A stretch of 64,000 nt of DNA from contig OY970334.1 of assembly GCA_963717445.1 (NCBI GenBank), forward strand, positions 965,798 to 1,029,797. The letters are read 5' to 3'. Both the position numbers and the translations under genes were made by a program. The stretch comes from an uncultured Bacteroidota bacterium. GTDB lineage: Bacteria; Bacteroidota; Ignavibacteria; UBA10030; UBA8401. Below the pieces are notes generated by a model, which did no database searches, had not been told where the DNA came from, and saw nothing but the letters and a program-made list of their open reading frames with translations. This document shows positions 52,613 to 63,931 of this stretch, one piece after another (position 1 is the stretch's first letter; each line of letters starts with the position of its first letter).

Positions 52613-55600
52613 CTAATGTTTGTCCGGATACGGTGGAGGTGGAGGCAGTTTTGCCGGATGTGTTTTCATCTGGTCAAGAATAACTTCAATTGCCTTGTTG
52701 AGCTGTTCGTCGATTCCAGCGTATTCCTTTGCCGGATCATTATCGACAACAATATCCGGGTCTACGCCATGTCCTTCCATAATCCATTTTTTCCCTTCGA
52801 TATCGTAACGGGAGAATTCCGGCTTGTTCAGGAACCCGCCGTCCAGGAAAGGGAGCGAACCGCGAATGCCGACTACTCCTCCCCACGAACGTTTGCCGAC
52901 AATTGGACCGATCTTATATTGTTTGAAGCGATATGCGACAATATCACCGTCGGAAGCAGAGAATTCATCGAGAAGCAATACCTTCGGACCGACCATCGTT
53001 CCGCTCGGGTCTGCACTGAAGGAGGTATTTCGCGCAATATCGATCATTGCGATTTCCCGATGCAATCGTTCGATGATCATCGGCGAAACGAAGCCGCCGC
53101 CGTTGCCGCGTACGTCGACGATGAGCGCTTCTTTCGTCAACTGGGGATAATAGTACTTGACGAACTCGTCCAAGCCGTGGAATCCCATATCGGGAATATG
53201 AACGTAGCCGACTCTTCCGTTCGTCGCTTTTGAAACTTTCTCGATGTTCGACTGCACCCAATTAAAGTAGTACAGTTCATGCTCGTCGCCGGTCGGTACG
53301 ACAACTGTTTCGTGGCTCCCTTCTTCCTTCGGTTCATCGTTCAATGTCAGGGTGACTTGCTTGCCGACGGTCCCGACGAGAGATTCATAAATATTGTTCA
53401 TCTCATTCGTCGGCTTGCCGTTCACTGCAAGAATATATTCCCCCTCTTTAGCGTTGACACCGATTTCAGTGAGAGGAGAGCGAAGGGTATTATCCCAATT
53501 TTGTCCACGAAGGATTTTCACAATGCGATAGTATTGTGAAACCGGATCGCGTTCGATTTTTGCACCAAGCAGGCCGGTCTTAATCCGTTCAGCATGCGGC
53601 ATTTCTCCTCCGCCCACGTATGTATGCCCGGTGCTCAATTCGCCGATCATTTCCCCAAGAATATATGTCAAATCGGCGCGGTGGTTCACGTACGCAACCA
53701 ACGGCTCATAATTCTTGCGGACATTTTCCCAGTCAACACCGCTCATGTTGGGGGCGAAATAGAAATCCCGCATCTGCCGCCATGCTTCGTGGAAGATTTG
53801 GTTCCATTCCGCGTGATGGTCGACCTTCACTTTCATGTCCGAGAGATTTAGCTTCTCCTTTATTTCGATTTTGGAGGTCGGCAAATCGATAATCGCGTAG
53901 GAGCCTTCCTGTCCAACGAGCATCTTTTTCCCGTCGGCAGAAATCTCGAATCCGTTAAAATCCCCAAGCTCGTTCTCTTTCAATTTTTCAAAATCAAAAA
54001 AGAGCAATTTAGATTTCTCATCCTTGCTGCCGTTGCGGATATAATAGAGCTTGTCTCCTACCGATTGTAAGTTGCGATAATTGGCGGCCGAGATCGGCAA
54101 TCCTGCGATGCGCTGTTGCAAACCGTCAAGATCCACTTTGATCGTTGGTTTTGATTCTTCTTTTTCATCTTTCTTCTTGTCCGGCCTATCGGATTCTTTG
54201 CTGACCTCTTTAATGTTCACTTCATCGCTCTTCGGCTCGAATGGAGATTTTGTCTCCTTTGAAAGTGTGACAAAATAAATCTTTGCCATATCGGTATAGA
54301 TATGCTCCAGCTCGGTTTGGCTCAGTGTCGGATTAAAACTTCTATCCGAAATAAAGAAAAGAAATTTTCCGTCGGAACTAAATTCAGGAGAATACGACGA
54401 ATACCATCCGTCAGTAACGGCGTACGATTCTTTCTTTTCGAGCGAATAGAGATAAATATTGGTCATCGATGAGTCTTCTGCTTTTGCATAAGCAATCCAT
54501 TTGCTGTCCGGAGACCATGCATAGTCCGAGAACTCCCAAGCCGTAGCCTGCGCTACTGTGGTTATTTTCTTCGATTCGACCTCCACGTACTGCAGGCGCA
54601 ATTTCTTGTCGGCCCACATGATTTTTTTGCTGTCCGGAGACCAATATCCCTGATATTTGTACGTATCGCCGTTCTTGGTCAATTGCGTTCCCGGTGCACT
54701 CCCGTCCTGAGGCATGATATAAATCTCATCTTCGCCGGATGCGTCCGAGATGTAAGTAATCCACTTACCGTCGGGCGACCATTTGGAATTGCGCTCATGA
54801 ACACCGGATGTGTTCGTCAGGTTACGTGTGTTCCCGTACTTGACCGGCACGGTGAAAATTTCTCCCCTTGCCCCGAAAAGAGCCCTGTTGCCGTCGGGAG
54901 AGATTTCGTAATTCGTAATATTCTTACTTACATCGACAACGTTCGCCCGGCCGATGGCAAAGTCTTCATCAATATAAATTGTTACCTTCTCTGTTTTTTC
55001 TGTCGCGAGGTCAAAACGATAAATGTATCCCCCGTTTTCAAAAACTATAGCGCTATCCCCGAGCGAAGGGAATTTCACATCGAACTCAACAAAGTTTGTC
55101 AATTGCTTTGTTTCTTTGGATGTCAGGTCGTAGGCATAGAGATTCATGCGCTTGTTTTCATCGCGGTCCGACACAAAATAGATTTTGTTCCCGCTCCACA
55201 TCGGAATAATATCTTGCGCCGGATTATTGGTGAGGTCAGTCGTTTGCTTCGTGTCAAAGTCATACAACCATACATCGTCTGCCTGACCGCCGCGATATCG
55301 CTTCCACGTCCGGAACTCCCTAAATATTCTATTATAAACCATTTTCTTTCCATCCGGAGAAAAAGAACAGAACCCACCGCGGGGTAAGGGAAGTTGTTGA
55401 GGCAAACCGCCGTTGATGGAAGTTATGAAAAGTTGTCCCTTGAAATCATTCGGCTCGTTCATTCGAGAACGAAACACGATATGCGAACTATCTTTCCATG
55501 TCATCACGATATTATTCGGACCCATGCGGTCAGAAACATCGTCACGGTCGAGGGTTGCGGTAAATGTGAGCCGTTTCGGAACGCCTCCTTCTGCCGGCAT

Positions 55601-55888
55601 GAGATAGACCTCGGTATTGCCGTCATATTGTCCAGTGAAAGCGATCCATTTGCCGTCGGGCGAAAAGCGGGCAAACATCTCGTATCCTATGTCGCTGGTT
55701 AACTTGCGCGCAACGCCCCCAGTCGATGAAACAGTATATAAATCACCGGCGTAACTAAAAACAATCTTGTCACCGTGTATCGCAGGAAACCTCAATAAAC
55801 GCGCCTCCTGTTGGGTGAACGCCATAGAAGACACCGAAAGGACGAGAGAGAGCAAAAAGATGAGCCTTTTCATAGATAAAACCTTCAT
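52613..55888 (-). CDS. Tricorn-protease-like multidomain peptidase (beta-propellers + PDZ + S41 peptidase)
   Basis: 1091 aa. Has a signal peptide and repeated PD40 / WD-like propeller blades (FSPDGKWIAF, SPDGNRALF, SPDSKKIMW). The C-terminal S41 region includes GYVHIPDM...VDVRGNGGG. Confidence 0.75.
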   Translation of the reverse strand: MKVLSMKRLIFLLSLVLSVSSMAFTQQEARLLRFPAIHGDKIVFSYAGDLYTVSSTGGVARKLTSDIGYEMFARFSPDGKWIAFTGQYDGNTEVYLMPAEGGVPKRLTFTATLDRDDVSDRMGPNNIVMTWKDSSHIVFRSRMNEPNDFKGQLFITSINGGLPQQLPLPRGGFCSFSPDGKKMVYNRIFREFRTWKRYRGGQADDVWLYDFDTKQTTDLTNNPAQDIIPMWSGNKIYFVSDRDENKRMNLYAYDLTSKETKQLTNFVEFDVKFPSLGDSAIVFENGGYIYRFDLATEKTEKVTIYIDEDFAIGRANVVDVSKNITNYEISPDGNRALFGARGEIFTVPVKYGNTRNLTNTSGVHERNSKWSPDGKWITYISDASGEDEIYIMPQDGSAPGTQLTKNGDTYKYQGYWSPDSKKIMWADKKLRLQYVEVESKKITTVAQATAWEFSDYAWSPDSKWIAYAKAEDSSMTNIYLYSLEKKESYAVTDGWYSSYSPEFSSDGKFLFFISDRSFNPTLSQTELEHIYTDMAKIYFVTLSKETKSPFEPKSDEVNIKEVSKESDRPDKKKDEKEESKPTIKVDLDGLQQRIAGLPISAANYRNLQSVGDKLYYIRNGSKDEKSKLLFFDFEKLKENELGDFNGFEISADGKKMLVGQEGSYAIIDLPTSKIEIKEKLNLSDMKVKVDHHAEWNQIFHEAWRQMRDFYFAPNMSGVDWENVRKNYEPLVAYVNHRADLTYILGEMIGELSTGHTYVGGGEMPHAERIKTGLLGAKIERDPVSQYYRIVKILRGQNWDNTLRSPLTEIGVNAKEGEYILAVNGKPTNEMNNIYESLVGTVGKQVTLTLNDEPKEEGSHETVVVPTGDEHELYYFNWVQSNIEKVSKATNGRVGYVHIPDMGFHGLDEFVKYYYPQLTKEALIVDVRGNGGGFVSPMIIERLHREIAMIDIARNTSFSADPSGTMVGPKVLLLDEFSASDGDIVAYRFKQYKIGPIVGKRSWGGVVGIRGSLPFLDGGFLNKPEFSRYDIEGKKWIMEGHGVDPDIVVDNDPAKEYAGIDEQLNKAIEVILDQMKTHPAKLPPPPPYPDKH

Positions 55889-56248
55889 GATGGTGAACGA
55901 TAGTTGTGAGGCAACGTGTATACGGTGCGAGTGGGGAAAAGTTACATCAAATATTGGCGGACGACTTCATATGCTGCCGTATGGTATACTGTGATATTCT
56001 TCCAAAATATACTGTTCAAAAAAGTGTGGTGCAAATCTGCCTTTGCTCTATTATATTAAAGCACTGAACAATATTCTTACGCGCAGGCGCTGGCAAAGCC
56101 GTCACTTCAGAAAAAGCCGCCAATGTTTCATTCGTAATCTGTTCTACGCCTTGGCGACTTTGCGTGAATCAAACTTTCCGGATTTTTCAGAATGCTCATG
56201 ATGTACCTCTTTGCAAATTTCATTTTTGTCCTCACAAATTGAAAAGAC

Positions 56249-58069
56249 ATGATGATTCGCAATTTTATTTTAGCTCTATTCATTCTCCTGTCTGAGTTTT
56301 TCCTTTCCGATGCCGGATACTCCGCGTTTATCCATCCCGCAGACTCATTATTCCTTCGCGTTGTCGTTCCAGACAGCGACACGATTGTAACAACCGCATC
56401 GCGGCAGAGGGTTTCTGCTTCTACTCTTCCTACCGCAAGGGCATTCATTAACGGCAAAGAAACCAAGGTATATGCCAGCGGTGCTTTTTGCGGTATCGTC
56501 AATGTCCCGGTAGGTTCAACAACACTTCGGCTTGTCGCTCAGTCGGCAAACGGCGATTCCGTTTTCCAAAATTTTGTTGTGCAGAGGCCTGAGCCTCCCA
56601 AGACTTCGCCACGCGAACCCATATCCATGGACACTATCATGATGGAGCCGTCGCAGGATATATGGCTGGGCAAGGATGACGTTCTTGAAGTAAAATTCAA
56701 AGGCAGCCCGGGATACAAAGCTTTTTTTGACATTGCCGGTGTTGAGTCGGGCATTCCGATGACTGAGCTTCAGCCGGCAAAAGCGGGCGGGCTTGCCGGA
56801 ATCTACATCGGAAGCTACAAAGTGAAAGAAGATGATGAAGCGAAAGAAGTGCAGGTGAGATTTCGTATTCCAAAGAATTTTTTCACGAGTGAAAAGGCAT
56901 ACTCAAAAGGAAAAGTCTCAATTATACCGAAAGAGCTTCCCCGTGTCGCCGAGGTCGTCGGCCGGCGGCCATTCTTCAATGCCGGTATGGGAAGCGACCG
57001 CCTCGGCGGGGCGAAATTGGGCTTTCTTCGAGCCGGCGTTCGCGTCGTGGTCACGGGAAAAGTCGGAGACCAATACCGAGTGAGGCTCGGTGATGAAATG
57101 GAAGCATGGCTGCCTGAAGATTTCGCCCAACTCCTGCCGTTCGAAACGCCGCGTCCCCGTTCACTCATTGGCGCATTGACGGTGTCGGGCAATGACAAGG
57201 AAGATGTTATTACGGTTTCATTGGATGAGCGTCTTCCGTACCTAAGCCAGCAACTCGTCGATCCTGCGGCCATCGTCGTCGATATTTTCGGCGCTACGTC
57301 CAATACAAATTGGATCACGCACCAATTGTCCGGAAGCGGAATAAAGAACGTAACGTGGAGCCAGGTGGCAGCCGGGCAATATCGCCTCACCATCATGTTG
57401 AAATATCAACAGCATTGGGGCTACGATATTAGTTATGATAACGGGTCGATCATGCGCATTAGTGTACGTCGACCGCCGATTATTTCCTCGCCCGACTCCG
57501 CGCTCAATGGATTGACCATCGCGGTTGATGCCGGGCATGGAGGGGAAAATGACGGCGCACTTGGTTCAACGGGAAAAAAAGAAAAAGAGATAACGCTCTC
57601 GATCGCCCAGCACCTCGATTCACTCCTGAGAACAAAAGGAGTAAACGTGATTATGACGAGAACAAACGATGAGACCATATCGATGGCGGATCGGACGGAT
57701 AAAATTCTCAACTCCGGTGCACAATTGTTAGTCAGTATCCACGCCAATTCCGCCGGCAATTCGGCCGACCCGGAACTCTTAAAGGGAACAAGCGCATACT
57801 ACCGTCATATCGGTTTTCAACCGCTGGCAAACATCGTTTACGGTAAAATGCTTGAGTTGGGACTGGATCAGTTCGGAGTGGTAGGAAGTTTTAATTTTAC
57901 GCTTAACGCCCCGACCCAGCTTCCGAACGTCCTGGTAGAAACAGCCTTCATGTCAAACCCGGAAGATGAAATGCTGCTCCTCGACGATAATTTTAGAGCT
58001 CGTATCGCCGTTCAAATTGCAAAGGGACTTGAAGAGTTCGTCACAACGTATGCCGAAAGGAAAAAATAA
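56249..58069 (+). CDS. N-acetylmuramoyl-L-alanine amidase (Amidase_3, AmiC-like, with N-terminal AMIN-like domains)
   Basis: Signal peptide. The C-terminal Amidase_3 domain includes TIAVDAGHGGENDGALG, LVSIHANS and ETAFMSNPED. Confidence 0.8.
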   Translation: MMIRNFILALFILLSEFFLSDAGYSAFIHPADSLFLRVVVPDSDTIVTTASRQRVSASTLPTARAFINGKETKVYASGAFCGIVNVPVGSTTLRLVAQSANGDSVFQNFVVQRPEPPKTSPREPISMDTIMMEPSQDIWLGKDDVLEVKFKGSPGYKAFFDIAGVESGIPMTELQPAKAGGLAGIYIGSYKVKEDDEAKEVQVRFRIPKNFFTSEKAYSKGKVSIIPKELPRVAEVVGRRPFFNAGMGSDRLGGAKLGFLRAGVRVVVTGKVGDQYRVRLGDEMEAWLPEDFAQLLPFETPRPRSLIGALTVSGNDKEDVITVSLDERLPYLSQQLVDPAAIVVDIFGATSNTNWITHQLSGSGIKNVTWSQVAAGQYRLTIMLKYQQHWGYDISYDNGSIMRISVRRPPIISSPDSALNGLTIAVDAGHGGENDGALGSTGKKEKEITLSIAQHLDSLLRTKGVNVIMTRTNDETISMADRTDKILNSGAQLLVSIHANSAGNSADPELLKGTSAYYRHIGFQPLANIVYGKMLELGLDQFGVVGSFNFTLNAPTQLPNVLVETAFMSNPEDEMLLLDDNFRARIAVQIAKGLEEFVTTYAERKK

Positions 58070-58437
58070 TAACCAAAGTCGTCTCCATTGTCATCGCTTT
58101 GGCACACCAACAACCATTTATTTCAGGTCAAGGCGTGGCAGATATCGGTAGTGCTCAAGTTTGGTAAGGTGACGGACACCTTTCCGATTTGCCTTGCCAA
58201 ATATTTTGGAACAATGTGATTTTTGGAGTGAGGTGTCCGGCACCTCATGCGAGTACGCAAAATTGACCACTGCTCAGATATCTCTTCCCTTGAAACCCAC
58301 ACTAAAAATTCTTACCTTATCAACATACGATTACCGCGAACAAGCGCACTACAGCTTCTGCTGCACCCTCCCACCCATGGCACGTATGATTGGGATCGCC
58401 AAGGAATGAAAATCTTCTTATTGCATAGGACGCCACC

Positions 58438-60087
58438 ATGAACATCGTCCCGAGCCGTCTGGCTCAAAAACTTATCCTCTCCCTTACAATCATCGTTATT
58501 ATCGTAGCCGGCGTCTCCGGATTTCTCAATGTAAAAACGCAGGAACGCCAGCTTCTTGACGCGATGGTTCTAGGCGCCGACCAGCTTTCCAATGGAATTA
58601 CAAGCGCAACGTGGCATGCCATGCTGGCCGATGATCGCGAGGCGGCATACGAGGTAATGCAAACAATCGCGACCAAGCAGGGTATCGATAGAATTCGTAT
58701 TTTCAACCGAGACGGAAAAATAATGTTTTCGACAAGGCATGAGGAGAACGAACAGGTGGAAAAAAACGCCGAACCCTGTTCACCGTGCCATACCACATTG
58801 CACCCATTGTCAAAAGTCGACATTCCCTCACGCGCCAGAATTTTCGATAACCCGGACGGGAGCCGGAGACTCACGATGATCACCCCGATCTATAACGAAC
58901 CATCGTGCAGTCAAGGAGTCTGCCATGCACATCCGGCTGAAACAAAAGTGCTCGGAGTACTTGACGTCGCCCTTGACCTTGACCGCGTCGACAAAGAAGT
59001 CGCCAATGTGAGAAACAGCGTTTTTGCCGTCACCGGAGTTGAAATCCTGTTGATTGCCCTTTTCATCATCTTTTTTACCCGCAACTTCGTCGATATTCCG
59101 ATCCGAAAACTTATCGATGGCACGCGCGCTGTGAGCGCGATGAACCTCGATCAACCTATCGACATTAAGGCAAGCGAAGAATTGTCTGTCCTGGCCAAGT
59201 CATTTAACACGATGCGCGAGCGGTTGAAGCGATCGATCGACGAGAATGTGCAATTTACTCAAAGCCTCGAAACAAAAGTCGACGAGCGAACCGCACAATT
59301 GAAGGCTGCCCATCAAAAATTATTGCAAAGCGACCGGCTGGCATCTCTCGGCCAGCTCTCGGCCAGTGTAGCGCACGAAATCAACAACCCGCTCTCCGGC
59401 GTGCTCAACCTGTCAATGCTGATGCAGCGTATTCTGAAAGACAACGGCATCCCGCCGGATCGAATCGAAGAATTCCGCAAATATCTTTCACAAGTAGTCA
59501 ATGAGACATCGCGGGTCGGACACATCGTTTCCGATTTACTTGCGTTCTCCCGCAGATCGAAACCGCAAAGCAGTATTGCCGACCTGAACGGTATCGTCAA
59601 GACAACGCTCGCGCTTATTTCTCATAAACTAAAGTTGATGAACGTCGAAACCGAGCTTACGCTTGAACAACAACTTCCTGCCGTTCAGTGCGACGGATCT
59701 CAGATGCAGCAGGTCGTCCTCAACCTCGTGATGAACGGCGCTGAAGCAACACTGAGCAAGGGCGGCGGAAAAGTTTCAATCAACACACGGTCCGTCCCAA
59801 AAGAGAATTCTGTAATTCTCGAAGTACAAGATACCGGAGACGGTATTTCGCCGGAAAATCTGTCGAAAATTTTCGACCCGTTTTTTACGACAAAAGGCGA
59901 AGGCAAAGGAGTCGGACTCGGTCTGGCCGTTGTGTACGGAATCGTGGAAGCTCATCGCGGAGACATCGAGGTGAAAAGTAAACCCGGTGAAGGAACAACA
60001 TTCATCGTTACTCTTCCACTGTTGAATGAAGAACGACCCCAGATTCCGGGCACTGTGGCGACTTCGGAAATGGAACGCATGGGGTGA
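58438..60087 (+). CDS. Sensor histidine kinase (2 TM, periplasmic domain with CxxCH, HAMP, HisKA, HATPase_c)
   Basis: TM1 is at residues ~13-31 and TM2 at ~193-213. HisKA H-box [13 protein letters not shown]-, G1- and G2-boxes are present ([26 protein letters not shown]). The periplasmic loop carries C114-S-P-C-H118 and C157-x4-C-H163. Confidence 0.8.
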
Positions 60088-60665
60088 ACTACATTTACCT
60101 CGCCCCAATCGGCGCGGTCAACGGTGAGATACTTACTGCGCTGGAAACACCATTGTGGCACGCTTTCGGGTTTGAAGTTCGAAGAATGGCCACACTCGAA
60201 GAACCATCATACGCGTTCGATGCGCAGCGCAATCAGTATAGCTCAACAATGATCCTTCGCGACCTCGTGCGGCGATGCCCGGAGGACGCCATACGCGTTC
60301 TCGGTGTCACAGAAAATGACCTTTATATTCCAATGCTCAGCTTTATCTACGGTCAGGCACAATTACGGGGCACCGTTTCGATTATCTCGCTAGCCCGTTT
60401 GCGTCAAGAATTTTACACTTTACCGGCAAATGGTGCACTGTTGCTAGGTAGAGTCGCAAAAGAGGCACTCCACGAAATAGGACATACGTTTGGTTTGATT
60501 CACTGTCTCGACAAAGGATGCCCAATGTCACTTGCGACGAATATTCATCAACTCGACCTCAAGGGAATAAATTTTTGTGCAAGTTGTTCAATTTTAATAC
60601 GGGAGAATATTACTATGATAAGCAATCAAACTCCGATTCGCAGCCGCTCGGAGGATAAACCATGA
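60084..60665 (+). CDS. amzA: Archaemetzincin-like zinc metallopeptidase (peptidase family M54)
   Basis: HEIGHTFGLIHCLDKGCPM-x16-CASC matches the archaemetzincin signature HExxHxxGx3Cx4CxMx17CxxC almost exactly. There is a 4-nt ATGA overlap with the kinase stop, and another with the response regulator start. Confidence 0.75.
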   Translation: MNYIYLAPIGAVNGEILTALETPLWHAFGFEVRRMATLEEPSYAFDAQRNQYSSTMILRDLVRRCPEDAIRVLGVTENDLYIPMLSFIYGQAQLRGTVSIISLARLRQEFYTLPANGALLLGRVAKEALHEIGHTFGLIHCLDKGCPMSLATNIHQLDLKGINFCASCSILIRENITMISNQTPIRSRSEDKP

Positions 60666-62020
60666 AGCCGCAGTGGGAAATTCTAGTTGTCGACGATGAA
60701 GAGGTGATGCGTGAATCGCTCGCAGCCTGGCTGCGGGAAGACGGCTATGGCGTGGAGACCGCATCGTCAGGCCGAGAGGCAATTGAAAAAGCCGGTGGAA
60801 AAGATTTTGCCATCTATTTCATCGACCTGAAGATGCCGGGAGGGATCGACGGCATCGAAACGATGATGGAGATCCGCAAGATGCATACAGAAGCGCCGAT
60901 CATCATCATTACCGCTTATGCAACGGTGGATACTGCCATTACGGCGATGAAAGAGGGGGCACAAGAGTACATCGTCAAGCCGTGCAACCCGGAAGAGATT
61001 TCACTGCTCGTGAGCCGCATCATCAAAGTAAAGAACCTTCAGCGGGAAAATACTATTCTCAGGAAGAAATTAACACGGCAATACAGTTTTCAGGACATCA
61101 TCAGCAAAAGCCCGAAGATGCACGAAATTTTTCAACTCGTTCAGGAAATTGCGAGCCTCCGGAGTACGGTGCTCATCGAAGGAGAAAGCGGTACCGGCAA
61201 GGAATTGATTGCGCGCGCGATCCATTTCTCCGGCGATCGGGCGGCGAAGCCGTTCATCGGCGTCTCGTGTGCTGCGCTGGCAGAAACGCTTCTCGAATCG
61301 GAATTATTCGGCCATGAGAAAGGCTCCTTCACCGGCGCAACTTCTCAAAAAAAGGGAAAGTTCGAGATGGCAGGGGGGGGAACCATTTTTCTGGACGAGA
61401 TCGGAGACATCTCGGCGAAATTGCAGATGGACCTTCTCCGCGTCCTGCAAGAACGGAGTTTTTACCGTGTCGGCGGCTCGGAAGAAATTCAGGTTGACGT
61501 TCGCGTTATTGCTGCAACGAACACCAGTCTCCAGGAAGCGGTCGCTTCGGCAACATTTCGCGATGACCTTTTCTACCGGTTGAACGTCATCAATATTCAT
61601 ATTCCTCCTCTTCGCGAACGGCGTGAAGACATCCCCCTGCTCGCCCACCACTTTATCGAGCGGCTCTCGCATGAATTGGGAAAAGAGGTCGGGGACGTGA
61701 CCGAGGGGGCGTTGAAGGTTTTGCTCGACTATAATTGGCCCGGCAACGTCCGCGAGCTAGAAAACGCGGTCGAACGAGGGATCGTAACATGCAGAACACG
61801 CATTCTCACAGAAGATGATTTTGGATTCCTGAATCACGGCAACGGAGAGAAAAAAAAATGGACGGTGCCGGACAATATATCTCTCGAAGAAATGGAGAAA
61901 CAATTAGTCACGGCAACCCTTCAACGAACAAAAGGGAACATCAAAGAGGCGGCCGAAGTCCTTGGTATCGATCGTTCAACGCTGTACGAGAAGATTAAGA
62001 AATACAATATCCTACGGTAG
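60662..62020 (+). CDS. Sigma-54-dependent response regulator (REC + AAA+ + Fis-type HTH; NtrC/AtoC family)
   Basis: The REC domain has the phospho-acceptor DLKMPG. The AAA+ domain has GESGTGKE, the GAFTGA-type loop EKGSFTGA, and DEIGDIS. The C-terminal HTH reads AAEVLGIDRSTLYEKIKKY. Confidence 0.85.
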   Translation: MKPQWEILVVDDEEVMRESLAAWLREDGYGVETASSGREAIEKAGGKDFAIYFIDLKMPGGIDGIETMMEIRKMHTEAPIIIITAYATVDTAITAMKEGAQEYIVKPCNPEEISLLVSRIIKVKNLQRENTILRKKLTRQYSFQDIISKSPKMHEIFQLVQEIASLRSTVLIEGESGTGKELIARAIHFSGDRAAKPFIGVSCAALAETLLESELFGHEKGSFTGATSQKKGKFEMAGGGTIFLDEIGDISAKLQMDLLRVLQERSFYRVGGSEEIQVDVRVIAATNTSLQEAVASATFRDDLFYRLNVINIHIPPLRERREDIPLLAHHFIERLSHELGKEVGDVTEGALKVLLDYNWPGNVRELENAVERGIVTCRTRILTEDDFGFLNHGNGEKKKWTVPDNISLEEMEKQLVTATLQRTKGNIKEAAEVLGIDRSTLYEKIKKYNILR

Positions 62021-62132: not shown

Positions 62133-62200
62133 CTTCTTTCTCTGAAGCCAGAGAAAGAAGCAAAGTCCCGCTGTGCGGGATCCCGCCTTTCATATTTTTG
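62133..62200 (+). terminator. Tandem hairpins (12-bp perfect stem CTTCTTTCTCTG-aagc-CAGAGAAAGAAG, then TCCCGC-tgt-GCGGGA) followed by TTTCATATTTTT; candidate terminator of the kinase / metzincin / response-regulator operon
   Basis: Read directly. It lies 113 nt after the response regulator stop. Confidence 0.4.
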
Positions 62201-62570: not shown

Positions 62571-62857
62571 ATTGTCAATCCAACACGGTTATCGGACTGA
62601 GTCACGCCGGCTTTCTTCCTTCTCAAAATAAGTCTCTACCGTAAATCCCCCTCTGCTGCGGGAGGACGTATATCGGAGCGAGGGGAATAAATAATCCTCA
62701 CCGCAAGCGGCGAATTATTAGTCATGCCCGCCCAAAGGCATCCAGATTGTGGATTCTGGCTTTCGCCAGACCTTATGTTTAAAAAGAAGAAGCCTCAACA
62801 TTGTTTTGTATATTTGAGTTGTCGAAAAACAAACACACAAACAATGCGAGGCTTCTT

Positions 62858-63931
62858 ATGCAACCCAAATGTAGTGAAGTAGATTTTAGGGGTCAAGATA
62901 TCTATGTCGGTATCGATGTTGGAAAGAGAAGTTGGAAAGTCTGCATCGTGACTGAATACGTAGAACATAGGGTCTTTACTCAACCGCCCACCCCAGCGAT
63001 GTTGGCAAATTATCTTCATCGAACATTTCCAGGTGCCAGATACCATAGTGCGTATGAGGCAGGATTTTCCGGTTTTTGGGCGCACGAGGAACTCCAAGCG
63101 CTCGGAATCGACTCTCGGGTCGTTAACCCGGCCGACGTGCCGACAACGCAGAAGGAGAAATCCTTTAAGACCGATAGGATCGATGCCCGTAAACTTGCCC
63201 GGTCCTTACGCAGTGGTGAACTGAGACCGATTTATGTTCCACCGAAGGAGGCGCAAACATACCGGTCATTAGCCCGACTGCGGAGCGTGTTGGTTCGTGA
63301 TCAAACTCGTTGTAAAAATCAGATCACATCCCTGTTGCATTATTATGGAGTACCAATCGACGAGTTATGCATTCGGACGCACTGGTCAAGGGCGTATCTT
63401 CGTGTGCTTGAGACTACTTCCCTCCACACCGAGCAAGGCACAATGGCATTGCGTATTCTTCTAAGTCGATACTATGCTATTAGAACCCAGGTCTTGGCGC
63501 TCACAAAAGAGATTCGAACCTTGGCACACGAAGAGCCTTTTCGGGAATCTATCCGGGTCTTAGTGACTGTTCCCGGCATCAGTGTCATCACCGCCATGGT
63601 CTTGCTCACGGAACTCATCGATATCAATCGGTTTGCTTCGCTTGATCACCTTGCCAGTTATTGTGGCTTGGTTCCTGGTGAACGCTCCAGCGGCGAACGG
63701 GAAATCATCACCGGTATTACCCGGCGACGAAACCCCTTCCTACGCGCGATGCTTATTGAATCGGCGTGGTGCGCCGTACGCCATGACCCCGCATTGTTGG
63801 CAAAGTTTGGCTCATTAAGCAAACGCATGAACAAGAATCGAGCGATCGTTCGTATTGCACGGAAACTCTTGAACCGAATTCGTTTTGTGCTCGTGCACCA
63901 CACAGAGTATCAACGATCTTTGGCAGCGTAA
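62858..63931 (+). CDS. IS110-family transposase / recombinase (DEDD RuvC-like + Tnp domain)
   Basis: YVGIDVGKRSW N-terminus, KTDRIDA, and a C-terminal ASYCGLVPGERSSG block. ATG at 62858-62860; the track start at 62801 is a non-ATG extension. Confidence 0.8.
   Translation: MQPKCSEVDFRGQDIYVGIDVGKRSWKVCIVTEYVEHRVFTQPPTPAMLANYLHRTFPGARYHSAYEAGFSGFWAHEELQALGIDSRVVNPADVPTTQKEKSFKTDRIDARKLARSLRSGELRPIYVPPKEAQTYRSLARLRSVLVRDQTRCKNQITSLLHYYGVPIDELCIRTHWSRAYLRVLETTSLHTEQGTMALRILLSRYYAIRTQVLALTKEIRTLAHEEPFRESIRVLVTVPGISVITAMVLLTELIDINRFASLDHLASYCGLVPGERSSGEREIITGITRRRNPFLRAMLIESAWCAVRHDPALLAKFGSLSKRMNKNRAIVRIARKLLNRIRFVLVHHTEYQRSLAA

Follow-up and report, generated by a model that had tools for sequence, protein, structure and literature searches.

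An archaemetzincin gene conserved beside a histidine kinase and a sigma-54-dependent activator: a candidate proteolytic accessory of a bacterial two-component system

Archaemetzincins, which occur in archaea, bacteria, and vertebrates (AMZ1 and AMZ2 in humans), are small zinc metalloproteases without a known physiological substrate or role. The only bacterial relative that has been functionally characterised is CarG of Myxococcus xanthus, an archaemetzincin-like zinc protein whose gene lies downstream of, and is translationally coupled to, carD, and which forms a tight complex with the transcription factor CarD (PMC8156234). Papers on CarG as late as 2022 still regard its motif as a mark of archaeal and metazoan metzincins alone (PMC9304148). 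This non-proteolytic binding of CarG to CarD is the nearest precedent for a tie between an archaemetzincin and the regulation of transcription. Two-component systems with an accessory third component are a known kind of signalling system, in which a metzincin as the accessory is new. Here, we describe such an arrangement in a stretch of 64,000 nucleotides (the window; contig OY970334.1, positions 965,798 to 1,029,797 of the forward strand, assembly GCA_963717445.1) from an uncultured Bacteroidota bacterium of the Ignavibacteria, in which an archaemetzincin (peptidase family M54) is encoded between a sensor histidine kinase and an NtrC-type sigma-54-dependent response regulator, and we follow this module through other bacterial genomes. 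A first-pass annotation of the window had been aware of no described system of this type; indeed, no paper in the searchable literature that mentions archaemetzincin, COG1913, PF07998, or AmzA links archaemetzincins to two-component systems.

All three open reading frames proposed in the first-pass annotation are borne out exactly, and all lie on the plus strand (Table 1). The kinase carries transmembrane helices before its HAMP domain, the model showing long helices at residues 6-63 and 182-214 that flank a periplasmic domain, and it matches PF00672 (HAMP, 33.9 bits), PF00512 (HisKA, 50.3 bits), and PF02518 (HATPase_c, 99.2 bits). The regulator consists of a receiver (REC) domain (PF00072, Response_reg, 101.9 bits), a Sigma54_activat AAA+ domain (PF00158, 234.7 bits) followed by AAA_lid_14 (PF25601, 87.7 bits), and a Fis-type helix-turn-helix (PF02954, HTH_8, 61.3 bits); its translation contains the receiver residues D11, D12, and D55, a Walker A motif GESGTGKE, and a GSFTGA loop, a variant of GAFTGA. 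Both proteins fall below all NCBIfam equivalog cut-offs, with AtoS (238 bits against a cut-off of 646) and AtoC (489 against 714) as the respective top matches, and by these scores they belong to an unnamed subfamily. The genes are joined by two 4-nt overlaps. Both had been read as ATGA, which is correct for the overlap of archaemetzincin and regulator, whereas kinase and archaemetzincin overlap in GTGA, an error in letter only. The GTG start of the archaemetzincin is the right one, because homologues align from residue 1 and the model has a beta-strand at residues 3-9. An overlap of this kind is commonplace in operons, and it is its conservation that exceeds chance; the stoichiometric co-expression that had been derived from the overlaps would be compatible with them.

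The middle gene had been assigned to the archaemetzincins from its motif, and profile searches agree, with 86.8 bits against Pfam PF07998 (cut-off 24.4) and 152.2 bits against NCBIfam NF033823 'archmetzin' (cut-off 145), the latter aligning residues 4-169 of 193. The proposed signature, HEIGHTFGLIHC-LDKG-CPM-x16-CASC, is found at H130 to C168. It includes the catalytic stretch HEIGHTFGLIH and completes the extended motif HExxHxxGxxHC-x4-CxM-x16-CxxC with its three histidine zinc ligands, catalytic glutamate, Met-turn, and four cysteines. The x16 spacing was considered as a hallmark of bacterial or CarG-like proteins, but is not diagnostic, as AmzA of Methanopyrus kandleri gives x16 with the same regular expression. 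A profile of the homologues retrieves 2x7m from the PDB at 1.9e-38, along with 3zvs, 4axq, and 3lmc, and the AlphaFold2 (AF2) model of the protein (confidence score, pLDDT, 90.4) is matched by Foldseek to 3zvs with E = 7.8e-17, a TM score (target) of 0.91, and a root-mean-square deviation (rmsd) of 2.0 A, as well as to 2x7m, 3lmc, and 4axq. The protein is a bona fide archaemetzincin and, as judged from the model, has the metzincin fold of the solved AmzA structures; as a member of the family it would be expected to bind two zinc ions and to cleave peptide bonds. Another member, AMZ-tk, degraded casein (PMC4681839). Neither a signal peptide nor a lipobox or transmembrane segment is present in the window protein, and its N-terminus is the buried beta-strand of the AmzA fold, so that the protein is predicted to be cytoplasmic and could meet only the cytoplasmic part of the kinase, the activator, and other cytoplasmic proteins. 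An identical protein from a metagenome-assembled genome (MAG) is already held at NCBI as 'archaemetzincin family Zn-dependent metalloprotease [Bacteroidota bacterium]'; therefore the gene itself is not new, and only its context might be.

This context is widely conserved. Homologues of the three window proteins were located by BLAST, with refinement of their starts, in 80 loci, the best of at least 294 confirmed matches in a set with one genome per GTDB species. These loci are the closest relatives of the query, and the linkage therefore covers one bacterial clade and not all archaemetzincins; the M54 family is far larger (4288 clusters at E <= 1e-3, 131 at E <= 1e-30). Among the 82 M54 genes in these loci, 77 adjoin a kinase/activator pair, either in the order of the window, kinase-M54-regulator (type A, 40 genes), or in the order kinase-regulator-M54 (type B, 37 genes), while five are unlinked; among these five, L057 is located at the edge of a contig and probably belongs to type B. 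The order of the window was also seen each time that distant homologues were looked up, in one MAG each of Terriglobia and Bacteroidota and in an untitled metagenome contig. The module spans more than ten bacterial phyla, its carriers being titled Acidobacteriota (several classes), Bacteroidota, Ignavibacteriota, Kryptoniota, Gemmatimonadota, and Myxococcota (Myxococcales), besides Desulfobacterota-type lineages (Desulfobacterota), Thermodesulfobacteriota, WOR-3, Cloacimonadota, and Limnocylindrales. The first-pass annotation had taken a gene order unique to this genome as the sign of an incidental insertion; the triad is instead clearly conserved, and no such insertion is involved. The tight junctions are kept as well: the 4-nt overlap of kinase and protease is retained in 31 of 40 type A loci and that of protease and regulator in 25 of 44, with the remainder mostly showing gaps of 0-12 nt, and in type B the regulator and protease are mostly separated by -4 to +33 nt. 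The conservation of the module is thus well established. In two Bacteroidota MAGs (L018:789-5089 and L024:817-7926) a type B module is directly followed by a type A module, and in L024 the stop of the first protease and the start of the second kinase share 4 nt, so that six signalling genes appear to form a single operon.

The history of the genes points in the same direction. In a neighbour-joining tree of M54 proteins, rooted with two archaeal AmzA sequences and without bootstraps, unlinked bacterial copies from Zixibacteria, Chloroflexota, and Armatimonadota branch next to the archaeal proteins, and the linked copies form a derived group that is largely split into type A and type B. This split is mirrored in the kinase and the regulator. 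Regulators share 68-83% identity with that of the window in type A and 44-54% in type B; for the kinase the values are 54-70% in most type A loci, 39-43% in a divergent type A minority, and 35-43% in type B. Pairwise M54 distances correlate with those of kinase and regulator within each type (r = 0.64-0.90). The shared split and the correlated distances therefore imply that the three genes have travelled together for long, through one rearrangement. It is accordingly very improbable that the archaemetzincin is a general housekeeping peptidase carried in the operon as a passenger without a specific tie to the signalling pair. The unlinked copies do sit among housekeeping genes (L044, L060, L076, and L083, from Zixibacteria, Armatimonadota, and Chloroflexota, next to NTPase_1 of the THEP1-like kind, thiolase/ChsH2-like, class V FBPase, and TldD genes), the family is large and extends to archaea and eukaryotes (PMC4681839), whose members lack a two-component partner of this kind, and some relatives of the pair have no M54 gene. 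Incidental passengers, however, are not retained with linkage in 77 of 82 genes across more than ten phyla, with conserved overlaps, with an adjacency that survives rearrangement of the gene order, and with a clade structure that matches both partners.

Selection has also acted on the chemistry of the protease. The motif residues are invariant in 37 of 37 homologues, and the full zinc motif is intact in all 44 type A genes, 36 of 37 type B genes, 4 of 5 unlinked genes, and 39 of 40 metagenomic copies. For the linked genome copies, HExxHxxGxxH is intact in 81 of 81 and the full extended motif, including Met-turn and Cys4, in 80 of 81, from which it follows that this chemistry is under selection. 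Metzincins bind their substrate by a strand bordering the cleft. In the model a loop near the active site, leading into the predicted strand 90-92, carries Q93 and L94, which are conserved in 99% and 88% of the linked M54 proteins. Both differ in all four unlinked bacterial sequences that were compared, and Q93 differs in both archaeal ones too.

On these grounds we suggest, tentatively and with somewhat less than even confidence, that the three genes form an ancient and widespread three-component signalling module, in which the archaemetzincin is an accessory that docks on the activator and carries out limited proteolysis. The membrane-bound kinase would use a PAS-like domain bearing two c-type-haem motifs to sense the periplasm, probably responding to redox state or to a haem ligand, and would phosphorylate the NtrC-type activator. 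Together with sigma-54, the activator would then induce the operon that encodes it, along with a neighbouring quinone-linked redox module of the Qrc or Hmc kind to which a GcvH-like protein belongs. As a dedicated accessory of the pair, the archaemetzincin would be made from the same message and at similarly low levels, and would dock most likely on the activator, possibly on the cytoplasmic part of the kinase, as CarG does on CarD. Its intact metzincin site could perform a limited proteolysis that resets or locks the output. The proteolytic layer that the first-pass annotation had proposed for the signalling pathway is plausible as a hypothesis; haem binding, the regulon, physical contact, and cleavage are all steps that we infer.

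The sensor step of this proposal draws on the periplasmic domain of the kinase. A CxxCH and a Cx4CH motif recur in almost every kinase of both module types and are common to many phyla, M62 is invariant, and H165, which follows Cx4CH, is nearly so. The AF2 model of the domain (pLDDT 85) shows a PAS/Cache-like domain between two long helices. Foldseek relates it to the extracellular domain of WalK and, at E = 2.5e-5 but with an rmsd of 13.5 A, to 3b42, the periplasmic sensor domain of the Geobacter chemotaxis protein GSU0935, which we take to be a c-haem-containing PAS-like sensor. By sequence, the domain had no match in a search against the PDB, and PF21563 is only weakly detected (30 bits against a cut-off of 27), no single stretch passing alone. 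The domain is probably a dihaem-c redox or ligand sensor of the PAS/Cache-like type, haem attachment being suggested by the motifs, and the kinases probably constitute a widespread, unnamed, and apparently undescribed family of dihaem periplasmic sensor kinases without a solved structure.

The putative regulon emerges from the genes around the module. When all neighbouring open reading frames in about 83 loci were clustered, the most conserved neighbours beyond the triad were a GcvH-like protein of about 275 aa whose N-terminal part is rich in Cys (45 loci), an NrfD-type membrane subunit (41 loci), a 4Fe-4S subunit (22 loci), and a molybdopterin-like subunit with a twin-arginine (TAT) signal, the first two being seen for both gene orders. 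In type A loci these genes form a convergent, Qrc-like redox operon on the other strand, with a QrcD match at the curated cut-off (570 bits, cut-off 570) and QrcC (350, cut-off 400) and QrcB (216, cut-off 440) below it, and the protease is always in the regulator operon. In type B loci the NrfD subunit is HmcC/HybB-like, and the genes for the FeS subunit, NrfD, the GcvH-like protein, kinase, regulator, and M54 follow each other on one strand. A GcvH-like partner of Qrc- or Hmc-like complexes seems to be undescribed, and nothing relevant was found in the literature on qrc, sigma-54, and GcvH. The search for sigma-54 promoters suggested in the first-pass annotation was fruitful in these relatives. 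Sites that agree with TGGCAC-N5-TTGCW at 10 or more of its 11 positions are enriched before module genes, where 10 of 36 fall into 3.3% of the sequence (-300 to +30 of the starts; p = 2e-7). Eight of these ten precede the kinase gene, which suggests autoregulation; 10/11 matches upstream of the kinase gene are found in L009, L112, L118, and L162. Enrichment is also seen before GcvH-like and FeS genes of the relatives, and, scored against open reading frame starts, sites lie ahead of the GcvH-like genes in L032, L041, L043, L057, and L071.

Several observations weigh against a proteolytic accessory acting within this relay. Metagenome contigs were searched from the sensor domain of the kinase instead of from the protease, which gave 57 informative loci. 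M54 follows the kinase in 44 of them, but in 13 (about 23%) kinase and regulator stand together without an M54 gene on either strand within about 5 kb. The kinases and regulators of these pairs are as similar to those of the window as the ones with M54 (62-67% and 69-85% identity). They fall at no fewer than three places on the regulator tree, with six of the eight that were placed there forming one clade; since pairs without M54 exist in at least three lineages, the relay works without the protease. It is therefore a frequent accessory (about 77% of loci) that has been lost repeatedly, and not an essential relay step. No residue of the regulator tracks the presence of M54, as three alignment columns differ but none does so in all three lineages without M54. 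Mirror-tree comparisons single out no partner either, with high correlations with both kinase and regulator and partial correlations that disagree between type A and type B. As possible Rosetta-stone fusions, three representatives resembling HATPase_c-M54 or AAA_lid-M54 were rejected because of long, garbled frameshift stretches. In the window, no sigma-54 site reaching 9/11 is found near the triad, and neither Qrc nor GcvH-like genes are present anywhere in its 64 kb, which makes it atypical of the module context. The three apparent fusions (P0121, P0178, and P0196), in which the C-terminus of a kinase or regulator is joined to an archaemetzincin, contain long out-of-frame stretches and are frameshift artefacts; the 4-nt overlaps make the module prone to such calls in error-containing assemblies. 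Lastly, in CarG the catalytic Glu is changed to Gln (HQxxH) and protease activity is lacking (PMC8156234, PMC3427221), and standard assays detected no activity of archaeal AmzA proteins, whose clefts are occluded (PMC3427221).

The last of these points raises an alternative in which the archaemetzincin is a non-proteolytic, CarG-like, zinc-bound cofactor of the activator or kinase, whose Cys4 zinc site could for example serve as a cytoplasmic redox or zinc input. CarG acts solely by pairing with a transcription factor, the product of the coupled upstream gene (PMC8156234, PMC3427221), and the window protein aligns over its full length (E = 2e-31, 109 bits, below the cut-off of 250) to NF033824 'Myxo_non_zincin', probably the NCBIfam model of CarG. 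CarG, however, has lost not only the glutamate but also the glycine of the motif, which is replaced by Glu (PMC8156234), whereas E131 and G137 are kept in all linked copies examined, and an intact HExxHxxGxxH in 81 of 81 linked proteins is hard to explain without catalysis. With a score below the cut-off, a retained Glu, and a different partner, the window protein is, as far as its sequence tells, not a CarG. Nor does the model favour the linked clade, and a derivation of CarG from that clade was considered and is not supported: NF033824 gives 88-109 bits for linked, 115-139 for unlinked bacterial, and 95-97 for archaeal proteins. We regard a cofactor devoid of catalysis as quite unlikely.

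A second alternative, which we consider rather unlikely, is that the archaemetzincin serves to mature or turn over a product of the regulon, such as the Cys-rich GcvH-like protein or a Qrc/Hmc-like subunit, and that this peptidase touches neither kinase nor activator and rides in the regulator operon only to be present when the regulon is used. It draws on the GcvH-like and NrfD-type genes as the next most conserved neighbours in both orders and on the uniform strand of the whole type B array. It is also weakly favoured by the type A loci without M54, none of whose six has a GcvH-like gene nearby, compared with 27 of 50 M54-positive ones (Fisher p = 0.024). This test is uncorrected for phylogeny, and six of the eight M54-less pairs that were placed on the regulator tree belong to a single clade. 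A role on the signalling proteins is favoured over this for three reasons. The type A protease stays in the regulator operon and is never part of the convergent structural operon on the other strand; nearly half of the M54-positive type A loci (23 of 50, the window among them) have no GcvH-like gene within 2.5 kb; and the protease adjoins the activator gene with tight junctions in both orders.

For an archaemetzincin that acts on the signalling proteins, we favour a protein that binds its partner as CarG does and in addition cleaves it, because the linked clade keeps every catalytic residue and has Q93/L94 near the predicted strand 90-92. That the linked archaemetzincins are dedicated and catalytically active regulators of a pair of haem-sensing kinase and sigma-54 activator, one member of which they bind and cleave, so that an irreversible proteolytic step enters a pathway controlling a periplasm-to-quinone redox module, is a possibility that we hold with distinct reserve. 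If the protease does act on the relay, this would be a new mode of controlling sigma-54 activators; cleavage of activator or kinase would give the archaemetzincin family its first physiological function and its first substrate, and would make this the first two-component system with a built-in metzincin. The recurrence of the module is in any case the first testable clue to the function of linked archaemetzincins, and the linkage to one signalling pair narrows the search for their partners to a few directly testable candidates, namely activator, kinase, GcvH-like protein, and Qrc-like subunits. It also gives CarG a wider context. In Acidobacteriota, Bacteroidota, Ignavibacteriota, and their relatives, the pairing of a Qrc/Hmc-like complex with a GcvH-like protein is apparently undescribed too, and it bears on anaerobic respiration in soils, peat, and sediments.

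The remaining features of the window are collected in Table 1. A weak candidate for a degenerate sigma-54 promoter, TGGCACGTATGATTGGG, has a perfect -24 element (TGGCAC) and a -12 GC that is missing or shifted, and stays below 9/11. Downstream of the regulator, an IS110-family transposase gene occupies the place of the convergent GcvH-like/qrc-like operon of the relatives; this operon may have been displaced or may lie beyond the end of the window. Two hairpins between regulator and transposase weakly indicate what is likely the end of the transcription unit. On its upstream side, the triad is preceded by a protease and an amidase gene (Table 1) and, further away, by an AddAB-like helicase/nuclease pair, TonB-dependent receptors, and a T9SS-tail protein, a context that is typical of the Bacteroidota group and is not conserved beside the module elsewhere.

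Table 1. Features of the kinase/archaemetzincin/regulator locus in the window, with the related loci that are referred to in the text.
Feature	Position in window	Strand	Details
Sensor histidine kinase	58438..60087	+	549 aa; first transmembrane helix (TM1), periplasmic domain, TM2, HAMP, HisKA, HATPase_c; open reading frame and Pfam
Periplasmic sensor domain of the kinase	58540..59022	+	kinase aa ~35-195; C114-x2-C117-H118, C157-x4-C162-H163, M62; domain shared by the kinases of L001-L086
Junction 1, GTGA	60084..60087	+	M54 GTG start over kinase TGA stop (60085-60087); 4-nt overlap
Archaemetzincin (peptidase M54)	60084..60665	+	193 aa; PF07998, NF033823, PDB profile matches, AF2 model
Q93/L94 of the archaemetzincin	60360-60365		conserved in linked copies
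Catalytic and structural zinc motif	60471..60587	+	H130-E131-x2-H134-x2-G137-x2-H140-C141-x4-C146-x-M148-x16-C165-x2-C168
Junction 2, ATGA	60662..60665	+	regulator ATG (60662-60664) over M54 TGA (60663-60665); 4-nt overlap
NtrC-type sigma-54-dependent response regulator (enhancer-binding protein)	60662..62020	+	452 aa; Pfam
Possible degenerate sigma-54 promoter	58378..58394	+	60 nt upstream of kinase ATG; weak candidate
Two hairpins 3' of the regulator stop	62133..62180	.	CTTCTTTCTCT...AGAGAAAGAAG and TCCCGC-TGT-GCGGGA; 62166-62180 flagged by scan for - strand only
IS110-family transposase	62801-63931	+	DEDD_Tnp_IS110 and Transposase_20; 0.8 kb downstream of regulator
Tricorn-like S41 protease with PD40 repeats	within 52613-58069	-	1091 aa; upstream of triad
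AMIN-domain N-acetylmuramoyl-L-alanine amidase	within 52613-58069	+	606 aa; upstream of triad
Kinase-regulator pairs without M54			L093, L103, L109, L120, L129, L132, L134, L157, and others
Qrc-like (type A) complex loci		-	L013-L015, L018, L036, L038; downstream of the module
Hmc/HybB-like (type B) complex loci		+	L055, L058, L070, L071, L077, L084; upstream of the module

Compared with the described systems, the module combines familiar parts in a different way. The window protein resembles the archaemetzincins AmzA of M. kandleri and Archaeoglobus fulgidus, AMZ-tk, and human AMZ1/AMZ2 by profile, motif, and fold, and shares with them a catalytic zinc site, a Cys4 structural zinc site, and the build of a small, single-domain cytoplasmic protein. 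For these archaeal and eukaryotic proteins neither a physiological role is known nor a two-component link reported (PMC3427221, PMC4681839), whereas the clade of the window is embedded in a kinase/sigma-54 activator operon and has its own Q93/L94. CarG has the same layout of His and Cys motifs, and its coupling downstream of a transcription-factor gene recalls the order kinase-regulator-M54. Its partner CarD, however, is an HMGA-type, RNA polymerase-binding protein that acts at promoters of extracytoplasmic function (ECF) sigma factors and is no sigma-54 activator, and CarG is confined to the Cystobacterineae (PMC9304148); the neighbours of the window M54 gene are a histidine kinase and a sigma-54 activator and not a CarD_CdnL_TRCF/HMGA protein. 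The first-pass annotation remarked that two-component pairs are normally adjacent without an intervening protease; for an intervening gene as such, a sigma-54 system with one is known in qseE-qseG-qseF (PMC6075780, PMC8745638). This QseE-QseG-QseF system of Enterobacteriaceae (GlrK-YfhG-GlrR) has the same order of kinase, accessory, and sigma-54 regulator, and QseG controls the state of its two-component system (PMC6075780, PMC12691602, PMC8745638), but QseG, a lipoprotein of the outer membrane, is no enzyme and makes its contact with the kinase in the periplasm, while the middle gene of the window encodes a predicted cytoplasmic zinc metalloprotease. Both the sensor and the redox operon have relatives too. 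Among the Geobacter haem-c PAS-like sensors (GSU0582/GSU0935), the model of the kinase sensor has the Foldseek match to 3b42 given above, and the domain carries CxxCH, but it bears two haem motifs (CxxCH and Cx4CH) instead of one, and does so on a kinase and not on a chemoreceptor. Neighbouring genes in the relatives match the Qrc menaquinone reductase complex of Desulfovibrio, from which their operon differs by an extra GcvH-like gene and by its occurrence in phyla that do not reduce sulfate. Cytoplasmic HExxH zinc proteases that are encoded beside the regulator they cleave, and thereby form an irreversible transcriptional switch, are known from ImmA-ImmR, IrrE(PprI)-DdrO, and BlaR1-BlaI. These proteases belong to other families (M78/COG2856 and M56), their substrates are repressors, no histidine kinase takes part, and cleavage has been demonstrated. 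The mechanism proposed here for the module, in which cleavage is hypothesised, is that of such ImmA-ImmR-type pairs.

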